This document shows positions 31,893 to 55,863 of a stretch of 58,113 nt of DNA, piece after piece. Each line of letters begins with the position of its first letter. Position 1 is the stretch's first letter. The notes below the pieces were generated by a model, which did no database searches, was not told the DNA's origin, and saw only the letters and a program-made list of their open reading frames with translations. The position numbers and the translations under genes are program-made. The DNA is from Eubacteriales bacterium (GTDB taxonomy: Bacteria > Bacillota > Clostridia > Oscillospirales > CAG-272): positions 1-58,113 of the forward strand of contig JAZUAS010000046.1 of the NCBI GenBank assembly GCA_045638125.1. Reading direction: 5' to 3'.

Positions 31893-31915
31893 TTTTACGA
31901 AAGGAAGAACCGGTA

Positions 31916-34086: not shown

Positions 34087-34109
34087 AATGGTTAAATATG
34101 AGGTAACTT

Positions 34110-35201: not shown

Positions 35202-35216
35202 AATTTAGGAGATTTT

Positions 35217-36521: not shown

Positions 36522-36532
36522 GGAGAAAATCA

Positions 36533-37897: not shown

Positions 37898-37907
37898 GGA
37901 GGTTGCC

Positions 37908-38192: not shown

Positions 38193-38227
38193 CCATTTAT
38201 TAAAATAACGAGGAGCTTTACTGTTTT

Positions 38228-39445: not shown

Positions 39446-39448
39446 TTA

Positions 39449-40504: not shown

Positions 40505-40521
40505 TTTAAGGAGTAAATCGC

Positions 40522-41589
40522 ATGAAAAAACTGCTAATTGTCATTCCGTCACTTCAACAGGGCGGAGGTCAAAAGTTTGTTATGGATCTTGCCAAAGGTA
40601 TTGATGCCACTAAATATCAAGTTAAGATATTAGTGTATTATCCAAAGAGTGATTCTATTTTTGATCGTTTTGCAGAAGAGAATCAAATGGATATGGTTTA
40701 TCTTGATAAAAGAGTTGGTTTGGACATATCCTTTTTCAAGAAAGTGCGCGCAGTTGTAAGAGAATATCGTCCCGATGTTATTCACACCCATCTCGACAGT
40801 ATGCTTTATCTCCTTCCGGTTTACAAAAGGAAACAGATTAAGTTGCACACGGTTCATACACTTGCTGAAAAGGAGACGGGCGGCTTGCAGGGAGTAGTGA
40901 GATTCTTTGCATATAAAATTCTCGGTGTTCTTCCTGTGGGTATAAGCGACACGGTTGCTGACAGTATTGCGCGTGAGCATAAGATCAAGCGCGACAAGGT
41001 TCCCGTGGTTTACAACGGTGTTGATTGCAGGCGTTACGATCTTCCCAAAATTAAATCAGATAAAATCCGTTTTGTTACGGTTGGTAACATATATTATGTT
41101 AAAAATTACTCGTTTTTAGTCGATTGCTTCGCCGAGGTTGCCCGTGAAATTGAAAACGTATCTCTCACTATCGTTGGGGATGGCGTGCTTCGCGGTAAGA
41201 TAGAGGAGCTATCGCGAAGATTGGGAGTTGCCGATAAGGTTCGTGTAACCGGTGTGGTTTCTGACGTAGAAAATTATCTGGCAGATGCCGATATATATGT
41301 AGCTTCGTCAAAATTTGAGGGGTTGCCTATTTCAATGTTAGAGGCTATGTCTGCCGGACTCCCGGTTATTTCAACGAATGTTGGCGGTGTTCCCGATATT
41401 ATAAAAACCGGTGAAAATGGTATTCTTGTTGCTTCAGGTGATAGGGAAGGATACGTTAAAGCTCTTCGTGAGCTGATAACCGATGCGGAAAAGAGAAGCG
41501 AGTACTCGAGAAGAGCAAAGATTTTTTCTGCAAAATATGATGAAACTGTAACAATTGCTGGGTATCAGGCCCTCTATGACGGTGTTTGA
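40522..41589 (+). CDS. Glycosyltransferase family 4
   Basis: 355 aa. It has N-terminal GGGQKFV and C-terminal FEGLPISMLEAMSAGLPVISTNVGGVPDIIKTGENGILV. Confidence 0.8.
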   Translation: MKKLLIVIPSLQQGGGQKFVMDLAKGIDATKYQVKILVYYPKSDSIFDRFAEENQMDMVYLDKRVGLDISFFKKVRAVVREYRPDVIHTHLDSMLYLLPVYKRKQIKLHTVHTLAEKETGGLQGVVRFFAYKILGVLPVGISDTVADSIAREHKIKRDKVPVVYNGVDCRRYDLPKIKSDKIRFVTVGNIYYVKNYSFLVDCFAEVAREIENVSLTIVGDGVLRGKIEELSRRLGVADKVRVTGVVSDVENYLADADIYVASSKFEGLPISMLEAMSAGLPVISTNVGGVPDIIKTGENGILVASGDREGYVKALRELITDAEKRSEYSRRAKIFSAKYDETVTIAGYQALYDGV

Positions 41590-41603
41590 AAAAGGAGAAA
41601 ACA

Positions 41604-42791
41604 ATGCGTATTTTGTTATATAGCGATTTTGCGCTTCCGGATAGTTGTGCAGATGCTACACGAGTAATTAATTTTGCAAAACTTTTGCGTGATCTTGGAC
41701 ATGATGTGACGCTTCAGGGGGTTCAGTATAAAGCCGACGGAGAATTAGAGGGAAACTATGATGGTTTGTCATTCAAAATGTTTCGTGCAGGTCAGTGGTT
41801 TGGTTTCCAGGCTCCCCGGCGTGTTCGCGGTCTTGAGCGTGATATTACGAATTATTTGCATGAACACTTGGGAGACCGAGCCTTCGATGTGATTTTTCTT
41901 TCGGGGATTTATTATGATTTTACGAAGCCTTTCCTCAAATATTCCAAGCGTTGCGGAGCAAAATTGATCGTTAATTCTTTGGAGTGGTACGACAAGAAGA
42001 ACACGTATTTTATTGGATTGCGCGGTAAGATCACTTTTGTGAAAAATCGTATAGCACTTAGGCATATATTTGTAAAAATGAAGAATATTTTTGCAATCAG
42101 CTCGCTTTTGGATGATTATTACAAGTCGAGAGGCTGCAATACTGTGACGGTGCCCACTATTGTGGATATGAGGGAATACGAAAGTGTAGCAAATACTGAA
42201 AAATCACGCGATGGAATAGTACGTATCGCCTATGCCGGTACGCCGGAAAGAAAGGATTATGTGGTTAATGCAATTCGCTCACTTTCTCTTCTTTCCAAGG
42301 AAGAAAGAGAGAGGATAGAGCTTCATTTTTACGGCCCGAGCCAACAATATCTGACTAAGCTTGCGCTTACACCCGAAGAGCTTGAGGCTTGTAGAGAACG
42401 TGTCATTTGCCACGGCAGAATTCCTTATCAAGAAGTAAAGGAAAGGATCGCCGCGGCAGACTTTACAGTGCTTTTGCGCCCCAATAAGCGTTATGCAAAC
42501 GCGGGATTCCCCACGAAGGTGGGCGAGAGTATGGCTTGCGGCACACCGGTGATAGCTAATATTACCAGTGATCTCGGAAGGTATATTTTAGACGGCAAGA
42601 CGGGTATAGTATGCAAAGACGAGACTCCCGAGGCTTGCGCCGAGGCATTTCGACGCGCGATTGCGATGAGTGAGGATGAGCGCAAGGAAATGCATGCGGC
42701 GACTCTTGCTATGGCAAAAAAAGCCTTTGATTACAGAGCCTATAACGAGGCTATAGAAAAATTTTTACAAGCTTGTTTGACAAGAGGATAA
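41604..42791 (+). CDS. Glycosyltransferase family 4
   Basis: ATG 41604 follows AAAGGAG. It has NAGFPTKVGESMACGTPVIANITSDLGRYILDGKTGIV. Confidence 0.7.
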   Translation: MRILLYSDFALPDSCADATRVINFAKLLRDLGHDVTLQGVQYKADGELEGNYDGLSFKMFRAGQWFGFQAPRRVRGLERDITNYLHEHLGDRAFDVIFLSGIYYDFTKPFLKYSKRCGAKLIVNSLEWYDKKNTYFIGLRGKITFVKNRIALRHIFVKMKNIFAISSLLDDYYKSRGCNTVTVPTIVDMREYESVANTEKSRDGIVRIAYAGTPERKDYVVNAIRSLSLLSKEERERIELHFYGPSQQYLTKLALTPEELEACRERVICHGRIPYQEVKERIAAADFTVLLRPNKRYANAGFPTKVGESMACGTPVIANITSDLGRYILDGKTGIVCKDETPEACAEAFRRAIAMSEDERKEMHAATLAMAKKAFDYRAYNEAIEKFLQACLTRG

Positions 42792-42794
42792 TTT

Positions 42795-43961
42795 ATGAAA
42801 AAATGTTTGTTTGTGATGCACGCTCTGGATATGGGCGGCTCGGGCACGTCACTGCTCAACCTTCTTTCTCTTTATCAGGATAGAGGAGAGACCTGCGATC
42901 TGTTTTTAATGGCGCAGGAAGGAGCTTTGTTAGATAGAGCAAGAGCAGTTGCAAATCTTTTGCCTGAGGACAAGCTCCTGTCGTCGGTAATGGTTTCCAA
43001 AAAAGGCCTGAAGAAGCGAGGATTTTCCGCTTTCTTTATTCGCGCCTGCTTTGTCGTTGCCCGCCGTTTGTTCGGAACGGGACGCACTGTTAGATGGGTG
43101 TATAAAAAAAGTGCCAAGCGTTTTGAGGGCAAGTACGATACGGTTATCGCTTATCAGGAGTCGTTGCCTACCGAGTACGCGCAGTATATTCCCGCCAAAC
43201 GCCGAGTTGCGTGGTGTCACTCAAACTATGATGCTTTTTCATCAGGTAAAAGCGACGAGATGCAAAAGTCACTTTATGAAAAATACGACCATATTGTCTG
43301 TGTAACAAATGTGATCAAGCAGGCTTTGATTGATAGACTTGGATGTTCGCCGGATTCCGTTTCCGTTGTATATAACACCATCCCATCCAAATTCATCAAT
43401 AATCGTGCAGATGCAGAGAAGGTAGATATTGTGAAAAAGCAGTTTGTTTTCGTTTCCATGGGGCGCTTTTCAAACGAGAAACGTTTTGAACGCGCGGTGC
43501 TTGCCGCAGAAGCTCTTAAGAGCCGCGGTGTTGATTTTGCGTGGTATATCCTTGGTAACGGACCGCTTTTTGAAGACATAAATAAAATGGTAGAGGAAAA
43601 GAATCTATCGGCTGAAGTCATCCTCACAGGTTTGAAAATAAACCCCTTTCCATATCTCAAGCAATCGGATTGCTTTGTTATGACATCGGAAAACGAGGGA
43701 CAGCCAATGGTGCTTAACGAGGCGTTGACTCTCGGTGTTCCTACCATAACCACGGGATTTCCTTCAGCGTGCGAGGTAGTAAACGACGGAGTAAACGGTA
43801 TTATCGTGCCGAATACCGACGAGGGCGTGATTGAAGGTGTTATTCGTTTTACCGAGGATGCGGTTCTTCGCGAGCAAATCAGGCGCGGAGCGAATGATTT
43901 TTTATATGATAATGAAAGTATTTTGAGCCAAGTTTCTCAAATTGCTACTTTGGAGAATTGA
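42795..43961 (+). CDS. Glycosyltransferase family 4
   Basis: 388 aa. It has GGSGTSLLNLL and SENEGQPMVLNEALTLGVPTITTGFPSACEVVNDGVNGIIV. Confidence 0.8.
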   Translation: MKKCLFVMHALDMGGSGTSLLNLLSLYQDRGETCDLFLMAQEGALLDRARAVANLLPEDKLLSSVMVSKKGLKKRGFSAFFIRACFVVARRLFGTGRTVRWVYKKSAKRFEGKYDTVIAYQESLPTEYAQYIPAKRRVAWCHSNYDAFSSGKSDEMQKSLYEKYDHIVCVTNVIKQALIDRLGCSPDSVSVVYNTIPSKFINNRADAEKVDIVKKQFVFVSMGRFSNEKRFERAVLAAEALKSRGVDFAWYILGNGPLFEDINKMVEEKNLSAEVILTGLKINPFPYLKQSDCFVMTSENEGQPMVLNEALTLGVPTITTGFPSACEVVNDGVNGIIVPNTDEGVIEGVIRFTEDAVLREQIRRGANDFLYDNESILSQVSQIATLEN

Positions 43962-43969
43962 TTTCGATT

Positions 43970-45520
43970 ATGAGTTTAAGAAGTAAAAGCATATCCCGTA
44001 ATATGATCGTCTCGCTGATAAATCAGGTGGTGACGTTGGTTGCGGGATTGGTAGTTCAACGATATATTTTGGTCGCTTACGGTTCTACCTATAACGGTCT
44101 TACCTCCCTTGTGACTCAGATAATGTCCTATCTGGTGCTTTTGGAGGCGGGGCTTGGCGCGGCATCTACTCAAGCGTTGTATAAGCCCTTAGGTGAAAAA
44201 GATTGGAAACGTGCAAGCGGAATAATGAGCGCTACCGCTATCTCTTACCGCAACGTAGGATTTATGTTCTCAGGACTTCTTGTGGGAGGAGCATTGCTGG
44301 TTCCCATTATTGCCAGCGGAGAGGTCGATTTTATTTTGGCGGCATTGCTTACTCTGTTGACGGGAGGAAGCTATGTCTTTACTTATTTGGTCAGTGGAAA
44401 ATATGCGGCTTTTCTTACTGCTGATCGTAAGAGCTATGTTCGTTCGCTAATTTCGACCGTAACGACCATTATGTCTGCGGTTTTGCGTATTATTGCTCTC
44501 AATAATGGGCAGGATATTCTTTTTGTGCAGTCGATAGGGTTGGGATGTTCAATTCTTCACGGTGTAGTAACTATACTATATGTAAAAAGAAAATATCCAC
44601 TGTTAAATTTGCGAGAAAAACCCGATTTCGGTGCAATTGGAAAGAGGTGGAACGTTTTTGTCCATCAAATTGCAGGTATTGTTGTCAATCACACCGATAT
44701 TCTCATACTTTCTGTTGTAGATACACTTAAACAAGTAAGCGTTTACAGCGCTTATAATATGATTTACTCTCATTTGGGGACCTTTGTTCAGTCAACCTTT
44801 ATGCAAGCGCCACAGGGTGACTTTGGACAGCTGTATAATACGGATAAAAAAGCTTTTGAAAAGCTTTATGCCTTTTATGAGACAATGTTTACTGTGATCT
44901 TGTTTATCATTGCCACATTGGCGCTGCTTTTGACTTTGCCATTTATCCGTCTTTATACCGCGAACGTCGCCGATGTCGAGTACATCGACATATGGCTTCC
45001 TGTTCTGTTTGTTGCCATCTTTATTATGAATCAGGTACGAGCATCTGCTATAATTACCGTCAATGCGGCGGGAGCATTCAAGGAGACTCAATGGGGAGCT
45101 ATAGTTGAGGCAGTGATAAATATAGTAGTGTCGTTGTCACTATTCTTCTTTACCGATCTCGGTATGAAGGGACTTTTGCTGGGAACCGTGGCATCTTATC
45201 TCTTCCGAACAGTTGACGTTATATCTTACGTTTACCGAAAGCTTATAGACCGTTCAATAGGTAGATTTTTGCGTCTTGTGTTTGCAAACGTGGTTGCTCT
45301 CGGTGTTCTTGTGTTAGTGTTTTATATATGGCATCCCATAGAGGCCACGTCTTATTTTGACTGGTTTGTACGTGCGGTTGTTTTAGGTATCATTACCGTA
45401 TTTACTTACGTAGTATTTAATTTTCTTATAAATTTCCGCGATACTCGTGATATGCTTGCGAGAATCATTAATAAATTTTATAAAAAAAGAAGAATAAAAG
45501 GGAAGGAGGATAACAGATGA
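43970..45520 (+). CDS. wzx: Wzx-type oligosaccharide flippase (MOP/polysaccharide biosynthesis protein family)
   Basis: About 516 aa with roughly 12-14 TM segments and the N-terminal pattern typical of Wzx. The start is chosen at ATG 43970; the ORF-track TTG at 43958 overlaps the upstream stop. Confidence 0.7.
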   Translation: MSLRSKSISRNMIVSLINQVVTLVAGLVVQRYILVAYGSTYNGLTSLVTQIMSYLVLLEAGLGAASTQALYKPLGEKDWKRASGIMSATAISYRNVGFMFSGLLVGGALLVPIIASGEVDFILAALLTLLTGGSYVFTYLVSGKYAAFLTADRKSYVRSLISTVTTIMSAVLRIIALNNGQDILFVQSIGLGCSILHGVVTILYVKRKYPLLNLREKPDFGAIGKRWNVFVHQIAGIVVNHTDILILSVVDTLKQVSVYSAYNMIYSHLGTFVQSTFMQAPQGDFGQLYNTDKKAFEKLYAFYETMFTVILFIIATLALLLTLPFIRLYTANVADVEYIDIWLPVLFVAIFIMNQVRASAIITVNAAGAFKETQWGAIVEAVINIVVSLSLFFFTDLGMKGLLLGTVASYLFRTVDVISYVYRKLIDRSIGRFLRLVFANVVALGVLVLVFYIWHPIEATSYFDWFVRAVVLGIITVFTYVVFNFLINFRDTRDMLARIINKFYKKRRIKGKEDNR

Positions 45521-46827
45521 CGGATAAAACCATTTTGCCCAACCCAAAATCGAGAAGTACAGTTATAGATCTTAATCATTTACTATTGATCGCTCTGTAT
45601 GTATGTGCGTTTTTTGCATTCCTTTCAAAAGATTTGTGGATATTTACTGGCCCGGTTATGGCGGTGCTTTGCGTGTATCTGTATTTTAAGGGATTTGCAG
45701 AATACGTTACTGCGCTTATTGTTATAGCTAATGATGCAATGGGAACTATATTCCTCGGCTCTGTGTCATTCCCATACCTGCTCATAGTGCTTGCATTGAT
45801 TCGTTTTGTTTTAGTCAAGCGGCGCATAAGCATACAGGAAATTGTGTTCTTTGCGGTTTCGCTGCTTTTGCTTATAGAGCTTATGGCGGTTGAACTGATA
45901 GATGGTCGAGCGGTATTTTATTCTATGACGTACATCGTCGGATTTTTGGCGCTTTCTCGAGGTGATGAATGGACTCATCGTCTTTTGCGCGGTATTACCG
46001 TTGCCGTTGCGCTTATTTCGCTGCATGCTGTTGTCACAGGCGGTGTACCGTACGTTGAGATCGATGTTTCCGGATCGTCATCTATCATATCTGTGATTCG
46101 TTATGGCGTTTTAGGTACTGGAAACGGCGACCCTAATTTCTCTGCTTTTTTGATAAACGTGGGATTAGCTTGTACATTGGGAGACCCAAAGCTTCGATGG
46201 TTAACAAAGCTTCTATTATCCTTGCTGTACTTCTTTGCGCTCGGTGTTACGGTTTCGATATCGGGACTTTTGGCGGCAGCTTGTATCTTGATAATTTTTT
46301 TGCTTTTGCGAAACAAACCCAGCAAGGGATTGTTGATTCTATGTATTTCAATTTTTGCATTGATTGTTGCTTTCCAGTTATATATTAATCTGCCGGATAC
46401 TATGCGTAATGCGACAATTGACGGATACATTTTGCGTATTGAGGAAGCATTGGGTATGGCATCCGACGGAGATATTTCGGGTGCTACCACAAACCGATCA
46501 GAAATTCTTTTGGGATACATTTATTATATCTTTGATCAGCCTATATTAGGATTGCTATTTGGCGGAAATTCACTTAAGGTTGACGGCAGAGGAATGCCTC
46601 ACAATACTTTTATAGGTATTATACTACAAATAGGCTGTATTGGTTTTTTGTGCCTTATGTTTTGGATGGGATTGCAAGTTTTCCAAAATATCAAAAAGCC
46701 AAAGGATGATCTTTGTCGCAAACAAAATCTGCTTTTAAAGGCACTCTGTATTTTTATGGCATTTACGTTAAGCTTCTATCAGGGAAGTCTTTGGGCACTT
46801 TGGATGTTCTTCATTTTTCTGTTGTAG
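45517..46827 (+). CDS. wzy: O-antigen ligase/polymerase-like (Wzy) membrane protein
   Basis: 436-aa polytopic protein with a large loop containing PHNTFIGIILQIGCIGF (Wzy_C-like H-N motif). Confidence 0.65.
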   Translation: MTDKTILPNPKSRSTVIDLNHLLLIALYVCAFFAFLSKDLWIFTGPVMAVLCVYLYFKGFAEYVTALIVIANDAMGTIFLGSVSFPYLLIVLALIRFVLVKRRISIQEIVFFAVSLLLLIELMAVELIDGRAVFYSMTYIVGFLALSRGDEWTHRLLRGITVAVALISLHAVVTGGVPYVEIDVSGSSSIISVIRYGVLGTGNGDPNFSAFLINVGLACTLGDPKLRWLTKLLLSLLYFFALGVTVSISGLLAAACILIIFLLLRNKPSKGLLILCISIFALIVAFQLYINLPDTMRNATIDGYILRIEEALGMASDGDISGATTNRSEILLGYIYYIFDQPILGLLFGGNSLKVDGRGMPHNTFIGIILQIGCIGFLCLMFWMGLQVFQNIKKPKDDLCRKQNLLLKALCIFMAFTLSFYQGSLWALWMFFIFLL

Positions 46828-46892
46828 AGTGATTACAAAATCCCCAAGATTACCAAAATTTAAATATAGAAATATAATTAAGGAACTAAAAA

Positions 46893-48902
46893 ATGAAAGC
46901 CCTAATACTCAATTCCGGTCTTGGTCGCAGAATGGGAGTGCTGACAAGCGAGCATCCCAAGTGCATGACCGAGATATCGGCAAAGGATACTATACTTTCC
47001 CGTCAGCTTCGCTTGATCGCAGAGGCGGGAATAAGTGAAGTGGTTATGACCACGGGATATTTCGACGAGGTGCTGGTAAATTACTGCCACTCGCTGAATC
47101 TTCCCCTGCATTATACCTTTGTAAACAACCCTGTTTACGACACTACTAACTACATTTATTCTATATACTGCGCTCGTGACACTCTTGTGGGCGAGGACAT
47201 CGTGCTTATGCACGGTGACCTTGTGTTTGAAAGCGAGGTATTTGACAAGGTTATTGCAAGTGACGTAAGCTGCATGACGGTCAGCTCGACTTTGCCCCTG
47301 CCCGAAAAGGATTTCAAGGCGGTGATAGGCGAGGGAAGAGTCAAGGCGGTAGGCATCGAGTTCTTTACCGACGCTCTGGCGGCTCAGCCTCTTTATAAGC
47401 TTTGCCAAAATGATTGGAAGGTCTGGCTCGACGAGATAATCGCTTTCTGCGAGAGCGACAACAGAAAGTGCTACGCTGAGAACGCTTTCAACAAGGTATC
47501 GGACAAGTGTCTCATCTATCCTCTTGACGTTGCTAACGCCCTTTGCGGCGAGATCGACACGCCCGAAGATCTGGCAGTTGTAGCATCGAGAATTGCCGAG
47601 CTTGAGAGACGCACCGTTTATATGTGTTTCTCCACCGATATGATCCACGGCGGACATATTGCCATCATCAAGAAGGCGCAGAAGTTAGGTAAGCTTATTA
47701 TCGGCGTACTTTCCGACGAGGCGGTTGCTTCCTACAAGCGTTTTCCGCTTATGCCTTATGCCGAAAGGAAATCTCTTGTGGAGAACATCAACGGTGTTTA
47801 CTCTGTTGTCGAGCAAAGGGAGCTGAGCTACGCCGAGAACATCAGAGCCTTGAAGCCGACTTATGTCGTCCACGGCGACGACTGGCGCGAGGGCTTTCAG
47901 AAGCCTATCCGCGACGAGGTGGTTGAGCTTCTTTCCGAATATGGCGGCAAGCTTGTTGAGTACCCCTACTCCAAGACCGAAACCTACCTTGAAATGGAAA
48001 AGATCTCCCGAGCGCAGCTTTCTATGCCCGATGTCCGTCGCGGCAGATTGAAGAAGCTTATCTCTATGAAGGGTCTCGTCACGGCTATGGAAGCGCACAG
48101 CGGCATCACGGGTCTTATCGTTGAGCAGACCAAGGTGTTGCAGGACGGCAAGACCTATCAGTTCGACGCAATGTGGGTATCATCGCTTTGCGACAGTACG
48201 GCAAAGGGCAAGCCCGACATCGAGCTTGTTGACATGACGTCACGTTTCCGCACCATCGACGATATTATGGAGGTCACCACCAAGCCGATAATTTTTGACG
48301 GCGACACGGGAGGACTGACCGAGCATTTCGTTTATACCGTCAAGAGCCTTGAGAGAATGGGCGTTTCCATGGTCATCATCGAGGACAAGACCGGACTTAA
48401 AAAGAACTCGCTCTTCGGTACCGAGGTCGAGCAGACCCAGGACAGCATCGAGAACTTCTGTGAGAAGATCAGAGCTGGCAAAAAGGCGCAAAAAACCAAG
48501 GAATTTATGATCTGCGCGCGCATCGAGTCGCTTATCCTTGAAAGAGGAATGGAGGACGCGCTGGAAAGAGCCTTTGCGTTCTCGGATGCCGGGGCCGACG
48601 CTATTATGATCCATAGCCGCAAGAAGGACCCTGCGGAGATCTTCGAGTTTGTTGAAAAATTCCGTCAGCAGAACAAGGCGACTCCCATCGTGGTAGTTCC
48701 TACCTCTTTCAATGCCGTTACCGAGCAGGAGTTTAAGGACAGGGGCGTTAACGTGGTCATCTACGCGAACCAGCTGACAAGAAGCGGTTTCCCCGCAATG
48801 CAAAAGACCGCCCTTACCATCCTTGAAAATCACCGCGCCAAGGAAGCGGATGATATGTGTATGTCCATCAAAGACATCATTACCCTTATTCCGGAGGAAT
48901 AA
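46893..48902 (+). CDS. pepM: Tri-domain fusion: LicC-like nucleotidyltransferase, TagD-like cytidylyltransferase and phosphoenolpyruvate mutase
   Basis: 669 aa. Residues 1-240 have MKALILNSGLGRRMG (NTP-transferase G-loop). The middle has VYMCFSTDMIHGGHIAIIKKA (H-x-G-H cytidylyltransferase motif). The C-terminus has FDAMWVSS, IIFDGDTGG and VIIEDKTGLKKNSLFG (PEP mutase EDK..K.NS motif). Confidence 0.8.
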   Translation: MKALILNSGLGRRMGVLTSEHPKCMTEISAKDTILSRQLRLIAEAGISEVVMTTGYFDEVLVNYCHSLNLPLHYTFVNNPVYDTTNYIYSIYCARDTLVGEDIVLMHGDLVFESEVFDKVIASDVSCMTVSSTLPLPEKDFKAVIGEGRVKAVGIEFFTDALAAQPLYKLCQNDWKVWLDEIIAFCESDNRKCYAENAFNKVSDKCLIYPLDVANALCGEIDTPEDLAVVASRIAELERRTVYMCFSTDMIHGGHIAIIKKAQKLGKLIIGVLSDEAVASYKRFPLMPYAERKSLVENINGVYSVVEQRELSYAENIRALKPTYVVHGDDWREGFQKPIRDEVVELLSEYGGKLVEYPYSKTETYLEMEKISRAQLSMPDVRRGRLKKLISMKGLVTAMEAHSGITGLIVEQTKVLQDGKTYQFDAMWVSSLCDSTAKGKPDIELVDMTSRFRTIDDIMEVTTKPIIFDGDTGGLTEHFVYTVKSLERMGVSMVIIEDKTGLKKNSLFGTEVEQTQDSIENFCEKIRAGKKAQKTKEFMICARIESLILERGMEDALERAFAFSDAGADAIMIHSRKKDPAEIFEFVEKFRQQNKATPIVVVPTSFNAVTEQEFKDRGVNVVIYANQLTRSGFPAMQKTALTILENHRAKEADDMCMSIKDIITLIPEE

Positions 48903-48938
48903 GAGTATCCCCGAAGAATAATTTTTGAGGAATAAAAA

Positions 48939-50048
48939 GTGAAACAAAAAATTATTAAAGGAAGTGCATCCTATAGGGAGCTTGGAGAAGCGCTCTGCTC
49001 CCTTGGGGTCACCAAATATATGCTGGTCTATAGCGGATCGGCAAAAAGACTCCCCGTGTGGGAGTATCTTGCAGAGCTTGACGTCCCCCGCGTGCTCTTT
49101 TCAAACTTTACTCCCAATCCCAAGTATGAGGAGATCGTGGGCGGTGTTGACCTGTTTCGTGCCGAGAAGTGCGACGGAATCCTTGCCATAGGTGGCGGAA
49201 GTGCCATCGACGTGGCAAAATGCATCAAGCTCTACTCAAAAATGAGCAAGGACAAGCTTTACCTTGATCAAGAGTGTACCGACACGGGTATTCCGCTTAT
49301 CGCTCTGCCCACAACTGCGGGAACGGGAAGCGAATCCACTCCTTTTTCGGTTATATACTATAAAGGAGAGAAACAGTCGGTCAAGCACCCGAGCATTTTG
49401 CCCGACGTGGCGATTTTGGACGGTGACGTGCTTGAAAATCTGCCCACATATCAGAAAAAATGCACCGTGCTGGATGCTTACTGTCAAGCTATCGAGGCTT
49501 GGTGGAGCGTAAATTCCGGTGACGAGAGCAAGGCTTGCTCAAAGGCCGCTATCGAGCTGATAAGAGACTATATTTTCGAATACGTGGAGCAAAACACCCC
49601 CATCGCTCGCGACAAAATTATGACGGCATCAAATCTTGCAGGTCAGGCGATAGCGTACACCGCTACTACCGCTCCCCACGCTATGAGCTATAAGCTGACT
49701 ACCACCTACGGTTATCCCCATGGTCATTCTGTAGGAATCAGCCTGCCTAGAGTGTGGAAATATATGATTGAAAATTATGAGAGCTGCAACGACCGTCGAG
49801 GAGCAGATTACGTTCTTGCAACCTTTGACGAGATAGCCAATGCTATGGGCTACGCCACCGCCAGAGATGCGGCAGAGGGCTTTGAGGCTATGCTTTCAAG
49901 GCTTGAAATAGCCTATCCTCACGATGAAAACAGGGAAGAGATGGCACGCTATCTTGCCGCTTCGGTCAACGTAGAGCGACTTGGCAATAATCCTGTCTCG
50001 CTCGATAACGAAGCTCTTTACAATCTTTATCTGGAGATGTTTATATAA
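48939..50048 (+). CDS. Group III iron-containing alcohol dehydrogenase (candidate phosphonoacetaldehyde reductase)
   Basis: 369 aa with a GTG start after GAGGAA. It has GGGSAIDVAKCIK and His-rich metal-site regions (HAMSY, HGHSVG). It lies between pepM and ppd. Confidence 0.7.
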   Translation: MKQKIIKGSASYRELGEALCSLGVTKYMLVYSGSAKRLPVWEYLAELDVPRVLFSNFTPNPKYEEIVGGVDLFRAEKCDGILAIGGGSAIDVAKCIKLYSKMSKDKLYLDQECTDTGIPLIALPTTAGTGSESTPFSVIYYKGEKQSVKHPSILPDVAILDGDVLENLPTYQKKCTVLDAYCQAIEAWWSVNSGDESKACSKAAIELIRDYIFEYVEQNTPIARDKIMTASNLAGQAIAYTATTAPHAMSYKLTTTYGYPHGHSVGISLPRVWKYMIENYESCNDRRGADYVLATFDEIANAMGYATARDAAEGFEAMLSRLEIAYPHDENREEMARYLAASVNVERLGNNPVSLDNEALYNLYLEMFI

Positions 50049-51157
50049 TGAAGCTTGATTTTTTAAAGGAATTTGAATTTTTTGCGGGAGTTCCCGATTC
50101 ACTCCTCAAGCCTCTCTGCAATTACCTTATGGCGACCTACGGCATTTCAAGTAAGCACGTGATTGCCGCCAACGAGGGCAACGCCGTGGGACTTGCGGCA
50201 GGCTACCACTTGGCAACGGGCAAGGTTCCGGTGGTTTATATGCAGAACAGCGGTCTTGGTAATATCATCAACCCCGTGGCGTCGCTTATGAACGATAAGG
50301 TTTACGGTATTCCTTGCCTCTTTATCGTAGGCTGGCGAGGCGAGCCGGGAGTTCACGACGAGCCCCAGCATATCTATCAAGGCGGGGTTACCGTGCGTCT
50401 TCTTGAGGACATGGATATTGCTACCTTTGTAGTAAGCAAGGATACAGCCGCCGCGGAGCTTGAAGAGAAGATGACGGAGTTCCGTCAACTTTGGGCCATC
50501 GGTAAGCAGACCGCCCTCGTTATCCGCAAAGGCGCGCTTGAATTTGACGGAAAGGTCAAGTATTCAAACGACAATAAAATGGTGCGCGAGGAGATAATCG
50601 AGCATATTGCAGCTGCAAGTGAGGGCGACGTAGTGGTTTCCACCACGGGCAAGGCCTCCAGAGAGCTTTTTGAGATCAGAGAGAGAAGAGGGCAGACACA
50701 CGGCTCGGATTTCCTCACCGTGGGCTCTATGGGACATTCCTCGTCGATAGCTCTTGCCATCGCCAATGAAAAGCCCGACCGCAAGATCTGGATAATCGAC
50801 GGCGACGGTGCGTTGCTTATGCACATGGGATCTATGGCACTACTCGGTGTCAATGCGCCCCCAAATGTGGTTCACGTCGTTATAAATAACGGCGCGCACG
50901 AAACAGTTGGTGGTCTCCCCACCGTGGCAGAGAAGATAGATCTTATGAAGATTGCAGAGGGATGCGGCTACCCCTCATTTGAGAGTGTCGATAGCTTCGA
51001 GGCGCTGGATAAGGCGCTTGTAGCGGCAAAGGCAGCCGACCACCTCTCGTTTATTGAGGTCAAGTGCTCCATCGGAGCGAGAGACGACCTCGGCAGACCC
51101 ACGACCACAGCGAAAGAAAATAAAGAGAACTTTATGAAGTACTTGGAGGATAAATAA
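50048..51157 (+). CDS. ppd: Phosphonopyruvate decarboxylase (ThDP-dependent)
   Basis: 369 aa. It has FAGVPDSLLKPLCNY...ANEGNAVGLAAGY and the ThDP motif IDGDGALLMHMGSMA...NNGAHETVGG. Confidence 0.85.
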   Translation: MKLDFLKEFEFFAGVPDSLLKPLCNYLMATYGISSKHVIAANEGNAVGLAAGYHLATGKVPVVYMQNSGLGNIINPVASLMNDKVYGIPCLFIVGWRGEPGVHDEPQHIYQGGVTVRLLEDMDIATFVVSKDTAAAELEEKMTEFRQLWAIGKQTALVIRKGALEFDGKVKYSNDNKMVREEIIEHIAAASEGDVVVSTTGKASRELFEIRERRGQTHGSDFLTVGSMGHSSSIALAIANEKPDRKIWIIDGDGALLMHMGSMALLGVNAPPNVVHVVINNGAHETVGGLPTVAEKIDLMKIAEGCGYPSFESVDSFEALDKALVAAKAADHLSFIEVKCSIGARDDLGRPTTTAKENKENFMKYLEDK

Positions 51158-51158: not shown

Positions 51159-52205
51159 ATGGGACTTTTTACAGGTAAAACACTTTTGATCACAGGCGGT
51201 ACAGGCTCTTTTGGTAACGCCGTACTTAACAGATTTCTTGACACTGACATCGGTGAGATCAGAATCTTCTCTCGCGATGAAAAGAAGCAGGACGATATGC
51301 GTCACTACTTCCAGGTGACAAAGCCCGAGGTTTCCGAGAAGATCAAATTCTATATCGGTGACGTACGCGACATCGCAAGCGTGCGCAACGCTATGCACGG
51401 AGTTGACTACATATTCCACGCGGCGGCGCTGAAGCAGGTGCCCTCTTGTGAGTTTTTCCCCATTGAGGCGGTAAAGACCAACGTGCTTGGTACCGAGAAC
51501 GTACTTACTGCCGCAATCGACGCGGGAGTTAAGAACATCGTCTGCCTCTCCACCGACAAGGCGGCTTACCCCGTAAACGCTATGGGAACAAGTAAGGCTA
51601 TGATGGAGAAGGACATCGTGGCGAAGTCGAGAACAGTCTGCCCCGAAAAGACCAAGATCTGCTGCACCCGTTACGGTAACGTAATGTGCTCTCGCGGCTC
51701 TGTAATTCCGCTTTGGATCGACCAGATCCGCGCAGGTAACCCCATAACCGTTACCGACCCCACAATGACCAGATTTATTATGTCACTTGACGAAGCGGTG
51801 GATCTCGTTCTCTTCGCATTTGAGCACGGTGAGAGCGGTGATATTCTTGTTCAGAAAGCGCCTGCTTGCACCATCAAGACCCAGGCAGAGGCTGTTTGCG
51901 AGCTTTTCGGCGGCGACAAGAACGCTATCAAGGTCATCGGCATCCGTCACGGTGAGAAGATGTACGAAACTCTCCTTACCAACGAGGAGTGCGCTAATGC
52001 AATCGACCTTGGCAACTTCTACCGCGTACCCTGCGATAAGCGCGGACTCAACTACGATAAGTACTTCAACAAGGGCGATACCGAAAGAAATCCCCTCACC
52101 GAGTTCAACTCTCACAATACCCAGCTCCTTAACGTTGAGGAGACCAAGGCGAAAATCGCGTCTCTTGCCTATATTCAGGAAGAATTGGCGAAATCGGGTA
52201 AATAA
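51159..52205 (+). CDS. fnlA: UDP-N-acetylglucosamine 4,6-dehydratase/5-epimerase (CapE/FnlA/WbjB type)
   Basis: 348 aa. KTLLITGGTGSFGNAVLNRFLDTDIGEIRIFSRDEKKQDDMR is nearly the S. aureus CapE N-terminus as I recall it. Confidence 0.9.
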   Translation: MGLFTGKTLLITGGTGSFGNAVLNRFLDTDIGEIRIFSRDEKKQDDMRHYFQVTKPEVSEKIKFYIGDVRDIASVRNAMHGVDYIFHAAALKQVPSCEFFPIEAVKTNVLGTENVLTAAIDAGVKNIVCLSTDKAAYPVNAMGTSKAMMEKDIVAKSRTVCPEKTKICCTRYGNVMCSRGSVIPLWIDQIRAGNPITVTDPTMTRFIMSLDEAVDLVLFAFEHGESGDILVQKAPACTIKTQAEAVCELFGGDKNAIKVIGIRHGEKMYETLLTNEECANAIDLGNFYRVPCDKRGLNYDKYFNKGDTERNPLTEFNSHNTQLLNVEETKAKIASLAYIQEELAKSGK

Positions 52206-52207
52206 TT

Positions 52208-53407
52208 ATGAAAATACTTATAACAGGAGCTTGCGGCTTCGTAGGTAAAAACCTTACCGAGGCTCTCAAAAACATAAAAGACGGCAAGGATAGACGTTTT
52301 CCGTCTCTCGCTATCGACGAGCTCTATCTCTACGACATCGACACCGACGAGAGCGTCCTTGAGGAAGGCTGCAAAAATGCCGATTTCGTCTTTAATCTTG
52401 CGGGCGTTAACCGCCCTCAAAACCCCGAGGAATTTATGCAGGGCAACTTCGGCTTTGCGTCAAAGCTGCTTGAGACGCTGAAAAAATATAACAACACCTG
52501 CCCCGTAATGATCTCGTCCTCAATTCAGGCGACCTGCATCGGTCGCTACGACAGCGATTACGGACGAAGCAAAAAGGCAGGCGAGGAGCTTGTTTTCGCT
52601 TACGGCGAGGAGACGGGCGCGAAGGTTCTTGTATATCGCTTCCCGAACCTTTTCGGCAAGTGGTGCAGACCTAATTACAACAGCGCGGTGGCAACCTTCT
52701 GCAACAATATTGCAAATGACCTGCCAATAACCGTCAACGACCCCTCGGTTCAGCTTGAATTGCTCTATATCGACGATCTCGTTGACGAAATGATCGCCGC
52801 ACTTGAAGGTAGCGAGCATCGTTGCGAGTTCAACGGCATTGAAACCGTGCTTTGCGAGGGCGGACATTATTGTGCCGCTCCCGTGACCCATAAGGTCACT
52901 CTTGGTGAGATCGTGTCTCTTCTTGAGAGCTTCCGCGCCCAGCCAAATACACTTGTTATGCCCGAAATCCCCGAAAACAGCTTTTCGAAGAAGCTGTATA
53001 GCACTTATTTGTCTTATTTGCCAAGGGAGAAGGTGTTTTTCCCTTTGAAGATGAACGTGGATGCGAGAGGCAGCTTCACCGAGCTGTTAAAGACTGAAAA
53101 ATGCGGTCAGTTCTCGGTAAATATCTCAAAGCCCGGCATCACCAAGGGTCAGCATTGGCACAATACCAAGTGGGAGTTCTTTATAGTTGTAAGCGGCAAG
53201 GGACTTATTCAGATGCGCAAGATCGGAAGCGACGAGGTTCTCAATTTCGAGGTCTCGGGCGAGAAAATCGAGGCGATACATATGCTCCCGGGTTATACCC
53301 ATAATATAATCAATCTGTCGGATACAGACGATCTTGTGACCCTTATGTGGGCAAACGAGCAGTTCGATCCCGCGCGTCCCGATACTTTTTTTGAGGTGGT
53401 GGAATAA
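52208..53407 (+). CDS. fnlB: UDP-2-acetamido-2,6-dideoxy-L-talose-forming reductase/epimerase (CapF/FnlB/WbjC type; SDR plus cupin)
   Basis: 399 aa. It has ILITGACGFVGKNL, YRFPNLFGKWCRPNYNSAVATFC, LYSTYLSYLP, ARGSFTE and ISKPGITKGQHWH, matching CapF blocks. Confidence 0.9.
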   Translation: MKILITGACGFVGKNLTEALKNIKDGKDRRFPSLAIDELYLYDIDTDESVLEEGCKNADFVFNLAGVNRPQNPEEFMQGNFGFASKLLETLKKYNNTCPVMISSSIQATCIGRYDSDYGRSKKAGEELVFAYGEETGAKVLVYRFPNLFGKWCRPNYNSAVATFCNNIANDLPITVNDPSVQLELLYIDDLVDEMIAALEGSEHRCEFNGIETVLCEGGHYCAAPVTHKVTLGEIVSLLESFRAQPNTLVMPEIPENSFSKKLYSTYLSYLPREKVFFPLKMNVDARGSFTELLKTEKCGQFSVNISKPGITKGQHWHNTKWEFFIVVSGKGLIQMRKIGSDEVLNFEVSGEKIEAIHMLPGYTHNIINLSDTDDLVTLMWANEQFDPARPDTFFEVVE

Positions 53408-54597
53408 TGGAAATGAACATAAAACTTGATTACAGCGACGTTTCTTTTAAGAACGACGGCAGACTTAAGCTTCTTATCATCGTTGGCACTCGCCCCGAGA
53501 TCATCCGTCTTGCGGCGGTAATAAACAAGTGCCGTAAGTATTTCGATTGCGTTCTCGCCCACACGGGTCAGAACTACGACTACAACCTCAACGGCGTGTT
53601 CTTCAAGGATCTGAAGCTCGACGCTCCCGAGGTCTATATGGATGCCGTGGGTGACGATCTTGGCGCGACGGTCGGCAATATCATCAACTGCTCATATAAG
53701 CTGATGAACACGATCAAGCCCGACGCTCTCCTTATTCTCGGCGACACCAACTCCTGTCTTTCCGCTATCGCGGCAAAGAGACTTCACCTCCCAATCTTCC
53801 ACATGGAGGCGGGCAACCGTTGCAAGGACGAGTGCTTACCTGAGGAGACCAACCGCCGCATAGTTGACATCATTTCCGACGTTAACCTTGCATACTCCGA
53901 GCAGGCGAGAACCTATCTCCACGATTGCGGTCTCCCCAAGGAGAGAACCTACGTTACAGGCTCTCCTATGGCAGAGGTGCTTCACGAAAATCTTGACGAG
54001 ATCAGAGCCAGCGACGTTCACGCGCGCCTTGGACTTGAAAAGAAGAAGTACATTCTCCTCTCGGCGCATAGAGAAGAGAATATCGACACCGAAAAGAACT
54101 TTTTGTCGCTCTTTACGGCGATAAACAAGATGGCAGAGAAGTACGATATGCCCGTTCTTTATTCCTGTCACCCAAGAAGTAAAAAGAGACTTGAAGCAAG
54201 CGGATTTCAGCTTGACAAAAGAGTTATTTGCAACCAGCCTCTCGGCTTCCACGACTACAACTGCTTGCAGATGAACGCCTTTGCGGTGGTGTCCGATAGC
54301 GGCACTCTCCCCGAGGAAAGCTCCTTCTTTACAAGCGTAGGCAATCCTTTCCCTGCGGTCTGCATAAGAACATCTACCGAGCGTCCCGAAGCGCTTGACA
54401 AGGCCTGCTTTATCCTTGCGGGTATTGACGAAAACTCACTGCTTCAGGCGGTAGATACCGCAGTTTCCATGACCGAGGCAGGCGACCACGGCATCCCCGT
54501 GCCTACCTACGTTGACGAAAACGTTTCCACCAAGGTGGTTAAAATCATTCAGTCCTACACGGGCGTAGTAAATAAGATGGTCTGGAGAAAATTCTGA
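53407..54597 (+). CDS. fnlC: UDP-N-acetylglucosamine 2-epimerase, non-hydrolysing (CapG/FnlC/WbjD type)
   Basis: 396 aa. It has KLLIIVGTRPEIIRLA, HTGQNYD, GDTNS, HMEAGNR and PEE.NRR. Confidence 0.9.
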   Translation: MEMNIKLDYSDVSFKNDGRLKLLIIVGTRPEIIRLAAVINKCRKYFDCVLAHTGQNYDYNLNGVFFKDLKLDAPEVYMDAVGDDLGATVGNIINCSYKLMNTIKPDALLILGDTNSCLSAIAAKRLHLPIFHMEAGNRCKDECLPEETNRRIVDIISDVNLAYSEQARTYLHDCGLPKERTYVTGSPMAEVLHENLDEIRASDVHARLGLEKKKYILLSAHREENIDTEKNFLSLFTAINKMAEKYDMPVLYSCHPRSKKRLEASGFQLDKRVICNQPLGFHDYNCLQMNAFAVVSDSGTLPEESSFFTSVGNPFPAVCIRTSTERPEALDKACFILAGIDENSLLQAVDTAVSMTEAGDHGIPVPTYVDENVSTKVVKIIQSYTGVVNKMVWRKF

Positions 54598-54620
54598 TTT
54601 TTTTGAGAAAGGAGCGCAGA

Positions 54621-55805
54621 ATGAACGAATTAAATAATATGTTTTTCGCGCTTTTGCGCTCGGTCTTATGCGGAGCGACGCTTGACAAGAGCCTTTTCCG
54701 CGACTTAGACGAGGAAAAGCTCGAAAGGCTTTATGAAATATCCAAAAGCCATGATCTTGCTCACCTTGTGGGCGCGGCGTTAGATGTCGCGGGTCTTCTT
54801 AAGCTCGGTGAAACATCTGAAAAGTTTGCAAATCAGCAGTACATGGCTGTTTTTCGTTATGAAAATATCAAATACGAGCAAGATAGAATACGCAAAGCGC
54901 TGGATGAAGCAGGAATAGCGTATGTTCCTCTTAAGGGTATGGTCATTCGCGACCTATATCCCGAGCCTTGGATGAGAACGAGCTGCGATATCGATGTTCT
55001 GGTTAGAGATAGCGAAGTAGATAAGGCAGCAGAAGCTCTCGTGAGCGCCCTCGGTTACGTTCTAGATCCGAGAAGGAGTTTTCATGATGTTTTGCTCCAT
55101 TCTGAGAGTGGTGTGCATCTTGAACTTCATTACAATATTAATGAAAATATTCCCGCAATAGATCAAGTGCTTACGCGAGTGTGGGAATATGCTTATCCTT
55201 TAGCCGAAGACAGAAGTGAGTATAGGCTCACAAAGGAATTTTTCATTTTCCATTTGGTAACCCATGCGTCCTATCATTTTGTAAACGGCGGATGCGGAAT
55301 TCGACCGATATATGATATTTGGCTTATGACCAAGGACGGCAGATATGATAGAAATAAGGTTTTATCGTTGTGCCGTGAAGGAAATTTGGAAAGATTTTTC
55401 TGCGCATTGGAAGAATTGGGCAAGGTTTGGTTTGAAGATCTCAAGCATGACGACGTAACACTAAATGTCGAAAGATACATCCTTTCGGGTGGTGTATATG
55501 GCACACAAGAGGCTAAGATTGCAGTGGTGCGCAAGTCCAAAGGCGGTAAGATCAGATATGTTTTTTCGAGAATGTTCGTATCATATGAGCATTTAAAATT
55601 CAAATATCCGTCTTTGAAATGCAAGGCTTTAGTGCCGATATATCAAGTACGTCGATGGTTTTCAGTTATCAAAGAAGGGAAGCTTTCAAGTTCTCTGACA
55701 GAGTATCGAATTAATCAAAATTTGAATAAGGATAAAGTAGATGAAATCGGAGCTCTTATGGATGAACTGGAATTAGAAAATTTGATAAAAAGAAAACAGC
55801 GTTAA
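54621..55805 (+). CDS. Uncharacterised nucleotidyltransferase-like protein (NTP_transf_5-like)
   Basis: ATG 54621 follows AAAGGAG. It has LKGMVIRDLYPEPWMRTSCDIDVLVRDSEVDKAAEAL..LGY and LHSESGVHLELHY (Pol-beta-type NTase pattern). Confidence 0.55.
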   Translation: MNELNNMFFALLRSVLCGATLDKSLFRDLDEEKLERLYEISKSHDLAHLVGAALDVAGLLKLGETSEKFANQQYMAVFRYENIKYEQDRIRKALDEAGIAYVPLKGMVIRDLYPEPWMRTSCDIDVLVRDSEVDKAAEALVSALGYVLDPRRSFHDVLLHSESGVHLELHYNINENIPAIDQVLTRVWEYAYPLAEDRSEYRLTKEFFIFHLVTHASYHFVNGGCGIRPIYDIWLMTKDGRYDRNKVLSLCREGNLERFFCALEELGKVWFEDLKHDDVTLNVERYILSGGVYGTQEAKIAVVRKSKGGKIRYVFSRMFVSYEHLKFKYPSLKCKALVPIYQVRRWFSVIKEGKLSSSLTEYRINQNLNKDKVDEIGALMDELELENLIKRKQR

Positions 55806-55832: not shown

Positions 55833-55863
55833 AAAAAAAGGCAGTCGCCCTGGCGACTGCCTT
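55832..55863 (-). terminator. Rho-independent terminator of the permease gene
   Basis: AAGGCAGTCGCC-CTG-GCGACTGCCTT. On the minus strand it is followed by T7. Confidence 0.8.

Follow-up and report, generated by a model that had tools for sequence, protein, structure and literature searches.

A three-gene module predicted to produce nucleotide-activated 2-hydroxyethylphosphonate at the conserved end of a variable surface-glycan locus

Positions 46893–51157 of contig JAZUAS010000046.1 contain three intact, co-directional open reading frames (ORFs) on the + strand, with a predicted function in phosphonate biosynthesis. The whole contig of 58,113 bp (positions 1–58,113) is referred to here as the window, and all searches of the window cover this length. 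The trio spans 4.3 kb and is arranged in the order phosphoenolpyruvate (PEP) mutase (PepM) fusion, alcohol dehydrogenase (ADH), and phosphonopyruvate decarboxylase (Ppd). A sequence-only reading of this DNA had given the trio exactly these boundaries, and all the motifs that it quoted, including FDGDTGG, GGGSAIDVAKC, and the thiamine diphosphate (ThDP) motif, are present in the translations; it had, however, listed the ADH as the third gene, and the ADH is the middle one. The PepM fusion gene starts with ATG at 46893, preceded by the ribosome-binding site AAGGA, and the ADH gene starts with GTG at 48939, preceded by GAGGA. The start of the Ppd gene overlaps the stop of the ADH gene (TAATG), and the ADH is predicted to be translationally coupled to Ppd. 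The next gene, of the FnlA type, starts 2 nt after the Ppd stop. A promoter-like site (TTACCA-17-TATAAT, 46850–46878, + strand), which is a consensus match only with 10 of 12 positions, lies just upstream of the trio, on the border of the block that related loci share. An Rfam scan of the window returned a single tRNA-Leu and no regulatory RNA near the trio.

The PepM protein (669 aa, 46893–48902, + strand) is a triple fusion composed of a nucleotidyltransferase domain (NT1), a cytidylyltransferase domain (CT2), and a PEP mutase domain. The PEP mutase domain (aa 381–669, 48033–48902, + strand) scores 408.5 bits with TIGR02320 over aa 386–668 (cutoff 319.55 bits, E 1.1e-122). The Pfam PEP_mutase match covers aa 386–643 (PF13714, E 4e-55), and the domain matches PDB 1M1B with E 6e-40. 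The fusion contains FDGDTGG and the sequence EDKTGLKKNS, which conforms to the motif EDKxxxxxNS that sets PEP mutases (Ppm) apart from the isocitrate lyase superfamily's other members (PMC6697681).

The CT2 domain (aa 236–380, 47598–48032, + strand) belongs to the family PF01467 (CTP_transf_like, E 4e-13). It shares 69 of 125 residues (55%) with the cytidylyltransferase (CyTase) domain of Fom1 (PDB 5X3D, E 4.4e-44), which makes the cytidine monophosphate (CMP) conjugate of 2-hydroxyethylphosphonate (HEP), according to the work cited as ref. 28 in PMC6697681. CT2 is predicted to make CMP-HEP as well, with HGGH as its predicted nucleotide-binding motif.

The NT1 domain (aa 1–235, 46893–47597, + strand) is LicC/MobA-like, with matches to PF12804 (36.3 bits, cutoff 27), PF00483, and DUF6564 (NTP_transf_3/DUF6564). 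Its best PDB match is LicC (1JYK, E 6.5e-8), and its match to Treponema PntC, an AEP-specific (2-aminoethylphosphonate) enzyme, is weak (6PD1, E 5e-4). The nucleotidyl activation domains mentioned in the sequence-only reading are thus present, with the correction that there are two of them and that both reside in the PepM protein. Triple fusions of PF12804, PF01467, and Ppm were described by Rice et al. in 42 proteins, corresponding to 2.8% of Ppm (PMC6697681). Fusions of NT1 to the ADH, found in 21 of 150 relatives, make HEP the likely candidate substrate of NT1, in preference to 2-aminoethylphosphonate (AEP). NT1 is absent from one related locus, L083 (loci are denoted by L and a number), where only CT2 and PepM are fused. 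Two NT1 proteins, 73–76% identical to that of the window, were found without PepM, ADH, or Ppd within 7 kb: an NT1-CT2 didomain protein of 380 aa in a glycan locus with LicD, Fnl, and sulfatase genes (L087, 7001–8143), and a stand-alone NT1 of ~238 aa beside a pyrimidine biosynthesis operon (L088, 7001–7720). Therefore, the role of the NT1 family is not strictly bound to phosphonate synthesis.

The Ppd (369 aa, 50048–51157, + strand) is a ThDP-dependent enzyme that scores 468.1 bits with TIGR03297 (cutoff 312.5 bits, E 1.7e-140). Its ThDP motif consists of GDG, 25 residues, and NN. Models of sulfopyruvate decarboxylase give only 75–112 bits with the same protein, with 112 bits for the beta subunit.

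The ADH (369 aa, 48939–50048, + strand) has the group III fold (PF00465, E 3.5e-39; PF25137, ADH_Fe_C, E 7e-22) and is a PhpC-like enzyme of the Fe/Zn type. The NAD(P)-binding GGGS part of its motif GGGSAIDVAKC spans G85–S88, and the metal ligands D179, Q183, H247, and H261 are conserved. A neighbour-joining tree of 89 Fe-ADHs, calculated without support values, places it in one clade of four groups, apart from 65 generic Fe-ADHs. The four groups are the window group, a rumen PepM-linked group, a pair of Streptomyces PepM-linked enzymes (L015 and L039, 28–29% identical to the window ADH), and a group from Planctomycetota and Latescibacteria. The Planctomicrobium ADH of the last group (L012) adjoins genes for PhnA (phosphonoacetate hydrolase; TIGR02335, 510 bits, cutoff 407.6 bits) and a PhnY-like aldehyde dehydrogenase, which is the gene arrangement that Piazza et al. 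reported for HEP catabolism (PMC13576164).

Residues Y140, S147, W189, T243, T244, and T254 are common to the four ADH groups and missing from the generic Fe-ADHs, and K145, T243, Y251, and R347 are invariant in all four phosphonate-linked groups. In PhpC, HEP is contacted by Lys157, Thr256, Tyr264, and Arg349, and the position of Tyr264 is occupied by Phe in sulfoacetaldehyde reductases (PMC13576164). We mapped this published PhpC numbering onto the window ADH through the alignment with the structures 6JKO and 6JKP. K145, T243, and Y251 correspond to Lys157, Thr256, and Tyr264, and the window ADH therefore has Tyr where sulfoacetaldehyde reductases have Phe. R347 is probably the equivalent of Arg349. 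Two Pseudomonas Fe-ADHs (L036 and L040) were tried as a reference for the PhpC numbering and rejected, because they are not members of the clade and their residues do not match in position. Based on the clade, the signature residues, and the synteny described below, we infer that the ADH is a PhpC-like phosphonoacetaldehyde reductase.

The ADH is the operon's sole candidate for an enzyme that consumes phosphonoacetaldehyde. No class-V aminotransferase (PF00266, the family of AEP transaminases) was found among the window proteins scanned, whose single aminotransferase, encoded at 28841, acts on sugars by its DegT-type assignment, and none was found in the flanks of related loci that were examined. 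The proposal that the pathway carries an ADH in place of the transaminase is supported, as is the branch towards HEP and not AEP, for which speak the synteny of the ADH, its PhpC-like clade and residues, the 55% identity of CT2 to Fom1, and the lack of an AEP transaminase in the window and flanks checked. On these grounds we consider HEP quite probable as the branch-point product.

The trio is found in 18 loci including the window (L001, L003–L010, L081–L085, L090, L091, and L093). L001 and L003–L010 were taken from among the matches listed in a scan of a genome collection with generic Fe-ADH motifs; the Pfam-based context of these loci was checked in part. Their hosts are rumen or gut metagenome-assembled genomes (MAGs) of Lachnospiraceae, Oscillospiraceae, unclassified Clostridia, one Defluviitaleaceae, and one Lentisphaeria. 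L081–L085 and L090 are closer relatives of the window, and L091 and L093 are loci with gene fusions. From relatives annotated as Clostridia, Oscillospiraceae, or Ruminococcaceae MAGs, the host of the window is judged to be a rumen or gut anaerobe of the Clostridia type.

The ADH adjoins PepM and Ppd in 18 of 19 informative loci. The exception is L002, in which an orphan ADH, 44% identical to that of the window, has uninformative neighbours. The ADH gene lies between those of PepM and Ppd in most loci and follows Ppd in L009, L091, and L093. The association persists across phyla at ADH identities of 38–90%, and clustering of all neighbouring ORFs revealed no conserved fourth gene beside the trio across 14 loci. 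Identities of PepM, ADH, and Ppd to the window proteins are 96, 72, and 86% in L081, 94, 60, and 85% in L082, 91, 54, and 71% in L083, and 84, 42, and 71% in L003. Of the trio, the ADH evolves fastest. Replacement of the ADH by a paralogue in the rumen loci (ADH 41–44%, PepM 76–84% identical) was considered and rejected, as ADH identity falls smoothly (72, 60, 54, and 42%) together with that of PepM (96, 94, 91, and 84%) and the enzymes form one clade. The trio thus has the appearance of a portable, conserved module. In the Lentisphaeria MAG from sheep rumen (L003, 3392–7637), the triple fusion and Ppd are 68–84% identical to those of the window, which suggests horizontal movement of the module between phyla in the rumen or gut.

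Relatives of the ADH provide information about the fate of its product. We searched 1.84 billion representative proteins and analyzed the best 150 of the 50%-identity representatives, which are 37–54% identical to the window ADH. Fusions are present in 34 of the 150: 21 have an N-terminal NT1, 11 a C-terminal LicD domain, and five a TagF-like CDP-glycerol glycerophosphotransferase domain (PF04464), some with an MptE-like domain. Two of the fusion genes have a readable context in operons with CT2-PepM and Ppd. The operon of L091 is composed of CT2-PepM, Ppd, NT1, and ADH-TagF-LicD, and that of L093, which has an ABC transporter gene beside it, of CT2-PepM, Ppd, and NT1-ADH-LicD. The NT1-ADH fusion of L009 likewise adjoins CT2-PepM and Ppd. 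The fusions to NT1, LicD, and TagF indicate that the product of the ADH is nucleotide-activated and then passed to phosphotransferases with CMP- or CDP-linked (cytidine diphosphate) donors. A limited search of the literature found no description of these ADH fusions. Separate LicD genes stand beside the trio in L005, L010, and L084. In some fusions of window ADH relatives (P0407, P0433, P0452, and P0507), TagF-like or LicD domains are combined with an MptE-like/DUF115 domain (PF01973), which comes last in the protein. The PF01973 family also includes the Maf flagellin-glycosylation proteins.

The trio abuts a strain-specific glycan assembly cassette of 18 kb (28841–46827, + strand), identified by Pfam matches and hydropathy, which lacks DNA similarity with L082, L084, and L085. 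The cassette encodes a DegT aminotransferase, a Bac_transf initiating transferase, five ATP-grasp proteins, a DctM-like permease, five glycosyltransferases of family 4 (GT4), and two polytopic membrane proteins. Its GC content is 36–45%, as compared with ~50% for the trio, and steps from ~40% to ~50% at the trio. The Wzx/Wzy assembly line named in the sequence-only reading holds in part: the Bac_transf and GT4 assignments are firm, the match to Wzy_C does not reach the threshold (24.9 versus 31.7 bits), and the putative Wzx (43958–45520) has no Pfam match and is a polytopic protein with approximately 10–12 hydrophobic segments.

Similarity of the window to L082, L084, and L085 in blastn comparisons begins at 46875–46891, just before the PepM start, and runs through the trio, the Fnl genes where present, and a permease gene. 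L090 is cut inside the fusion gene, so the comparison with this locus does not cover its upstream part. The description of the trio as embedded in the glycan locus is therefore to be replaced by that of a conserved block abutting a variable one. The ADH of L084 belongs to the same 90% cluster as that of the window, and the upstream gene set of L084 is different, with an IspD-like gene in addition to Wzx, CTP_transf_3, and LicD. In L082, which shares the glpP and permease flanks of the window, the trio occurs without glycan genes; it lies between glpP/HAD and the permease, with a GDPD gene nearby. In L083, the operon of CT2-PepM, ADH, and Ppd stands alone between mutS2 and feoB, again without glycan genes. 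Most trio loci have glycan contexts with GT4, Bac_transf, Wzy, Rml, or Fnl genes (the window, L003, L004, L009, L081, L084, L085, and L090).

Downstream of the trio, FnlA-, FnlB-, and FnlC-like genes (51159–54597, + strand) would provide a UDP-2-acetamido-2,6-dideoxy-L-hexose of the L-FucNAc type (TIGR04130, 520.8 bits, cutoff 730; NF047837, 345.7 bits, cutoff 500; TIGR00236, 216 bits, cutoff 210). FnlABC and the trio form a shared 3′ block. The Fnl genes are conserved in L081, L084, and L090, and the trio travels with FnlABC in four close relatives. By analogy with capsule loci, the trio, often accompanied by Fnl genes, behaves like the precursor genes that serotype-variable loci have in common at their conserved end. 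The locus closes with a gene (54603–55805, + strand) for a PF14907 (NTP_transf_5) protein that is not specific to the phosphonate trio. It was considered as a HEP transferase and rejected: it comes after the trio or Fnl genes in the window, L081, L084, L085, and L090, but it also follows FnlABC in the trio-less L089, and L082, L083, and the rumen loci lack it. A tblastn search of the 58-kb window for LicD, TagF-like, and MptE-like domains gave nothing better than E 0.03. Because the contig contains no recognizable transferase and the PF14907 protein is nonspecific, the step of attachment to a glycan is not recognizable here.

We hypothesize that the three genes constitute a self-contained module for the synthesis of nucleotide-activated HEP, which would serve as the donor for a transferase acting on a glycan or a teichoic-acid-like polymer, and we assign this explanation a probability of roughly two in three. 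The PepM domain would isomerize PEP to phosphonopyruvate, and Ppd would decarboxylate phosphonopyruvate to phosphonoacetaldehyde, pulling the unfavourable mutase equilibrium forward; both assignments have the support of curated equivalog families. The PhpC-like ADH would then reduce phosphonoacetaldehyde to HEP, as indicated by its clade, signature residues, and synteny. CT2, and probably NT1 too, would condense HEP with CTP to CMP-HEP, in line with the homology to Fom1 and the domain fusions. Finally, a phosphotransferase of the LicD or TagF type may esterify the phosphonate onto a surface glycan or teichoic-acid-like polymer, a step suggested by the fusions and neighbours of the relatives only. 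Placed with L-FucNAc-type genes where a hypervariable surface-glycan locus has its conserved 3′ end, the module would resemble the shared precursor genes that border serotype-specific regions in capsule loci.

Several observations weigh against this explanation. The closest solved homologue of the ADH is the sulfoacetaldehyde reductase 6JKO/6JKP, and both enzymes have Gln as the second metal ligand: position 183 is Gln in the window ADH, as in 6JKP, and His in the PhpC of Paraburkholderia fungorum. The ADH reaches no NCBIfam equivalog and scores 138 bits with TIGR03405 (Phn_Fe-ADH), below the cutoff of 423.7 bits. TIGR03405 is narrow, however, as the PepM-linked Streptomyces ADHs of L015 and L039 (181–193 bits) and the Planctomicrobium ADH (185 bits) also stay below its cutoff. 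PF01467-Ppm fusions occur in AEP clusters too, for example in Bacteroides fragilis (PMC8942020), so the similarity of CT2 to Fom1 alone leaves the substrate unfixed. The model does not account for two nucleotidyltransferase domains in one protein, and relatives of NT1 at 70–80% identity also occur without phosphonate genes nearby. The window has no LicD, TagF-like, or other recognizable phosphotransferase, in contrast to the related loci L005, L010, L084, L091, and L093, which have one. Lastly, the trio exists without glycan genes nearby in L082 and L083.

The last two points bear on the target of the phosphonate. HEP could be made and activated, but attached elsewhere than to the glycan of the cassette; conceivable acceptors are a teichoic-acid-like polymer, some glycopolymer of the cell wall, or a lipid, synthesized by genes in other parts of the genome. 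This would agree with the trio loci that lack glycan genes, with similarity to relatives that starts at the trio and its own promoter-like site, with the TagF-like glycerophosphotransferase domains among the fusion partners and the ABC transporter gene beside the L093 operon, and with the window's lack of a transferase. The predominance of glycan contexts among trio loci and the joint conservation of the trio with FnlABC in four close relatives speak against it, and we regard such attachment as unlikely, though with a probability that is still appreciable. Of the HEP-decorated polysaccharide predicted in the sequence-only reading, the synthesis and activation of HEP are supported; attachment to the cassette glycan is not established, given that the trio abuts the cassette, that L082 and L083 do without glycan genes, and that LicD and TagF are missing. 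The chances that HEP is placed on the polysaccharide of this very locus appear evenly balanced.

Other alternatives concern the product itself. AEP is the usual cell-surface phosphonate and accounts for 56% of ppm neighbourhoods (PMC8942020), and AEP clusters often contain PF01467-Ppm and PF12804-Ppm fusions (PMC6697681). The real end product could be AEP or a derivative, formed by a transaminase encoded elsewhere, and the ADH could be a side-branch enzyme or an aldehyde detoxifier. The conservation of the ADH beside PepM and Ppd across phyla, the absence of PF00266 from every flank examined, and the fusions of the ADH to NT1, LicD, or TagF-like domains, according to which the product of the ADH and not the aldehyde is activated and transferred, make this highly unlikely. 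It is also conceivable that HEP or CMP-HEP is only an intermediate that is methylated, as in fosfomycin biosynthesis, or oxidized to methylphosphonate or hydroxymethylphosphonate, with another phosphonate or a diffusible small molecule as the outcome. HEP is an intermediate of the fosfomycin, phosphinothricin, dehydrophos, and methylphosphonate pathways (PMC8942020, PMC8931226), and CMP-HEP is the substrate of Fom3 in fosfomycin biosynthesis, as stated in PMC6697681 with reference to its ref. 28. The window lacks radical-SAM, HEPD/MpnS-type, and other tailoring genes, and none is consistently found beside the trio. The O2 requirement of MpnS and HEPD agrees poorly with the anaerobic lineage indicated by the relatives, and we give further conversion very little credence.

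The least credible of the alternatives is that the ADH and NT1 belong to a non-phosphonate polyol pathway, like the pairs of a reductase and a cytidylyltransferase for CDP-ribitol and CDP-2-glycerol, or that the ADH reduces sulfoacetaldehyde. The sulfoacetaldehyde reductase as the best solved homologue, the NT1 relatives that occur apart from phosphonate genes, and the NT1-ADH-LicD architecture, which is reminiscent of the sequence of reductase, CDP-alcohol, and phosphotransferase, could be read in its favour. However, each NT1-ADH or ADH-LicD/TagF fusion with a readable context adjoins CT2-PepM and Ppd, the Ppd scores 468 bits as phosphonopyruvate decarboxylase versus 112 bits as sulfopyruvate decarboxylase beta subunit, the ADH has the Tyr that sulfoacetaldehyde reductases replace by Phe (PMC13576164), and phosphonoacetaldehyde would be left with no consumer in the operon without the ADH.

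Within the preferred explanation of a module for activated HEP, it is possible, if rather improbable, that HEP is a bifunctional building block and not a pendant decoration, in the role that glycerol phosphate has in teichoic acids. TagF-like or LicD-type enzymes would use CMP-HEP to esterify the phosphonate to one residue, and the hydroxyl group of HEP would carry the next. Capsule polymers of this phosphono-teichoic or phosphonate-bridged kind would be resistant to phosphodiesterases and could be widespread in rumen and gut Clostridia. They could also supply HEP to the HEP-catabolic clusters of rumen Fibrobacterota and other bacteria, with the window module as the precursor-supply half.

The predicted chemistry has counterparts in known systems. 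The HEP phosphonoglycans of Glycomyces sp., reported in 2014 as cited in PMC8942020, PMC13576164, and PMC8931226, share the predicted chemistry, in which PepM, Ppd, and a PhpC-type Fe-ADH give HEP on an extracellular polysaccharide. The window differs in its Clostridia-type anaerobic host, as opposed to aerobic actinomycetes, and in its PepM triple fusion; this comparison is of the pathway as cited. In the fosfomycin pathway of Streptomyces wedmorensis (Fom1 CyTase-PepM, Fom2 Ppd, FomC ADH), the same four steps lead from PEP through phosphonopyruvate, phosphonoacetaldehyde, and HEP to CMP-HEP, and the cytidylyltransferase is fused to PepM in both systems. The window, in contrast, lacks Fom3, Fom4, and FomD, has a glycan rather than an antibiotic context, and has NT1 in addition. 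The window ADH shares with the PhpC-type reductases (PhpC, DhpG, and the catabolic PhpC of P. fungorum; PMC13576164) the fold, the neighbour-joining clade, Lys, Thr, Tyr, and Arg in or close to the HEP-contact positions, and the link to phosphonoacetaldehyde. It differs from them in Gln183 instead of His and in its TIGR03405 score far below the cutoff, and the biosynthetic ADH evolves faster than PepM and Ppd.

The AEP-bearing capsular polysaccharide B of B. fragilis, together with the logic of PntC (PMC6697681), is similar in the gut anaerobic host, the fusion of PepM to a nucleotidyltransferase, the Ppd, the glycan locus, the CMP-phosphonate donor, and the LicD-like transferases present in many such loci. 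It takes the AEP transaminase branch, whereas the window has an ADH, and NT1 is closer to LicC than to Treponema PntC. The methylphosphonate clusters of Nitrosopumilus, Prochlorococcus, and SAR11 (PepM-Ppd-Pdh-MpnS; PMC8931226) likewise make HEP by PepM, Ppd, and an Fe-ADH (Pdh), and their product is carried on cell-surface glycoconjugates. MpnS is missing from the window, and HEP itself is therefore the expected head group. One sampled Pelagibacterales Fe-ADH (L025), which has no PepM in its flanks and may or may not be a Pdh, is placed among the generic Fe-ADHs outside the window clade.

Li and Horsman assigned 8.5% of 434 ppm neighbourhoods to the PhpC (HEP) type, in ten gene-cluster families that include Helicobacter cinaedi and Campylobacter jejuni; the only products isolated were methylphosphonate from Nitrosopumilus and a HEP exopolysaccharide from Stackebrandtia (PMC8942020). 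The novelty claimed in the sequence-only reading must be narrowed accordingly: HEP glycans have been isolated from two actinomycetes only, but PhpC-type loci (PMC8942020) and the triple fusion (PMC6697681) were already catalogued. The window contributes a case from a lineage of the Clostridia type, and the analysis of its relatives contributes the wide occurrence of the module across rumen and gut metagenomes as well as the fusions of the ADH to NT1, LicD, and TagF domains. The pathway type is a known one, but chemical confirmation of it has never come from gut or rumen Clostridia.

If our explanation is correct, gut and rumen Clostridia display or release HEP esters, which would add phosphatase-resistant, negatively charged groups to surface polymers. 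Chemical records of such groups so far come from just two actinomycetes and from marine high-molecular-weight organic matter, and the surface antigen chemistry of the gut would be widened beyond the AEP of Bacteroides. Piazza et al. found gene clusters for HEP catabolism in Fibrobacterota of the rumen as well as in other degraders of biomass; they raised the question of where the HEP comes from, with the speculation that members of the community might produce it (PMC13576164). Rumen MAGs with the module would be concrete candidates for these producers, and thus for the source that the catabolic clusters call for. The compact module of three genes in 4.3 kb offers a clonable route to the steps after nucleotide activation of phosphonates, and the fusions of the ADH to NT1, LicD, and TagF-like domains name candidate enzymes for them.

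The ATP-grasp genes of the glycan cassette form a set of three tandem ATPgrasp_ST (PF14397) paralogues (31889–35201), flanked by two ATP-grasp genes of the L-amino-acid-ligase type (coordinates given with the set are 30705–31892 and 35217–37897), and are followed by the DctM-like permease with 12 segments. The set and the permease suggest a glycan rich in amino acid or other carboxylate modification. The permease is an odd gene for a glycan locus, and a similar ATP-grasp pair occurs in L089, without phosphonate genes. On its right side, the locus is separated from a convergent xanthine/uracil permease gene by a two-way terminator-like hairpin of 11 bp with seven G-C pairs (55838–55863). On the left side, the cassette is preceded by a glycerol-3-phosphate dehydrogenase/DUF1667/GlpP unit on the + strand (24612–28454), which is conserved with L082. 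The unit encodes a DAO/BFD-type FAD dehydrogenase (24612–26045), a Pyr_redox_2 protein (26061–27302), a DUF1667 protein (27403–27771), and a GlpP antiterminator (27876–28454). An ORF of 991 aa on the opposite strand (24402–27377, –) has no family match and is almost certainly a shadow ORF.

Two long ORFs of 1480 and 1732 aa (9355–13797 and 14049–19247, both – strand) have no Pfam match at E 1e-3 and may encode novel surface proteins; the + strand ORFs overlapping 9355–13797 have no family match either. An AraC-type regulator, a polysaccharide lyase of family 8 (774 aa, of the chondroitin/hyaluronan/xanthan lyase type), and a carboxypeptidase of family M14 are encoded together at 19362–23796 (– strand), a grouping that fits a lifestyle of degrading host glycans or polysaccharides. 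The stretch at ~6000–10000 has a low GC content of 38–40%, compared with 44–50% around it, and contains several ORFs without a family match and a tyrosine recombinase gene (8314–9156, – strand), which lies ~5.6 kb from tRNA-Leu(CAG) (2611–2697, – strand). This low-GC stretch may be an integrated element.

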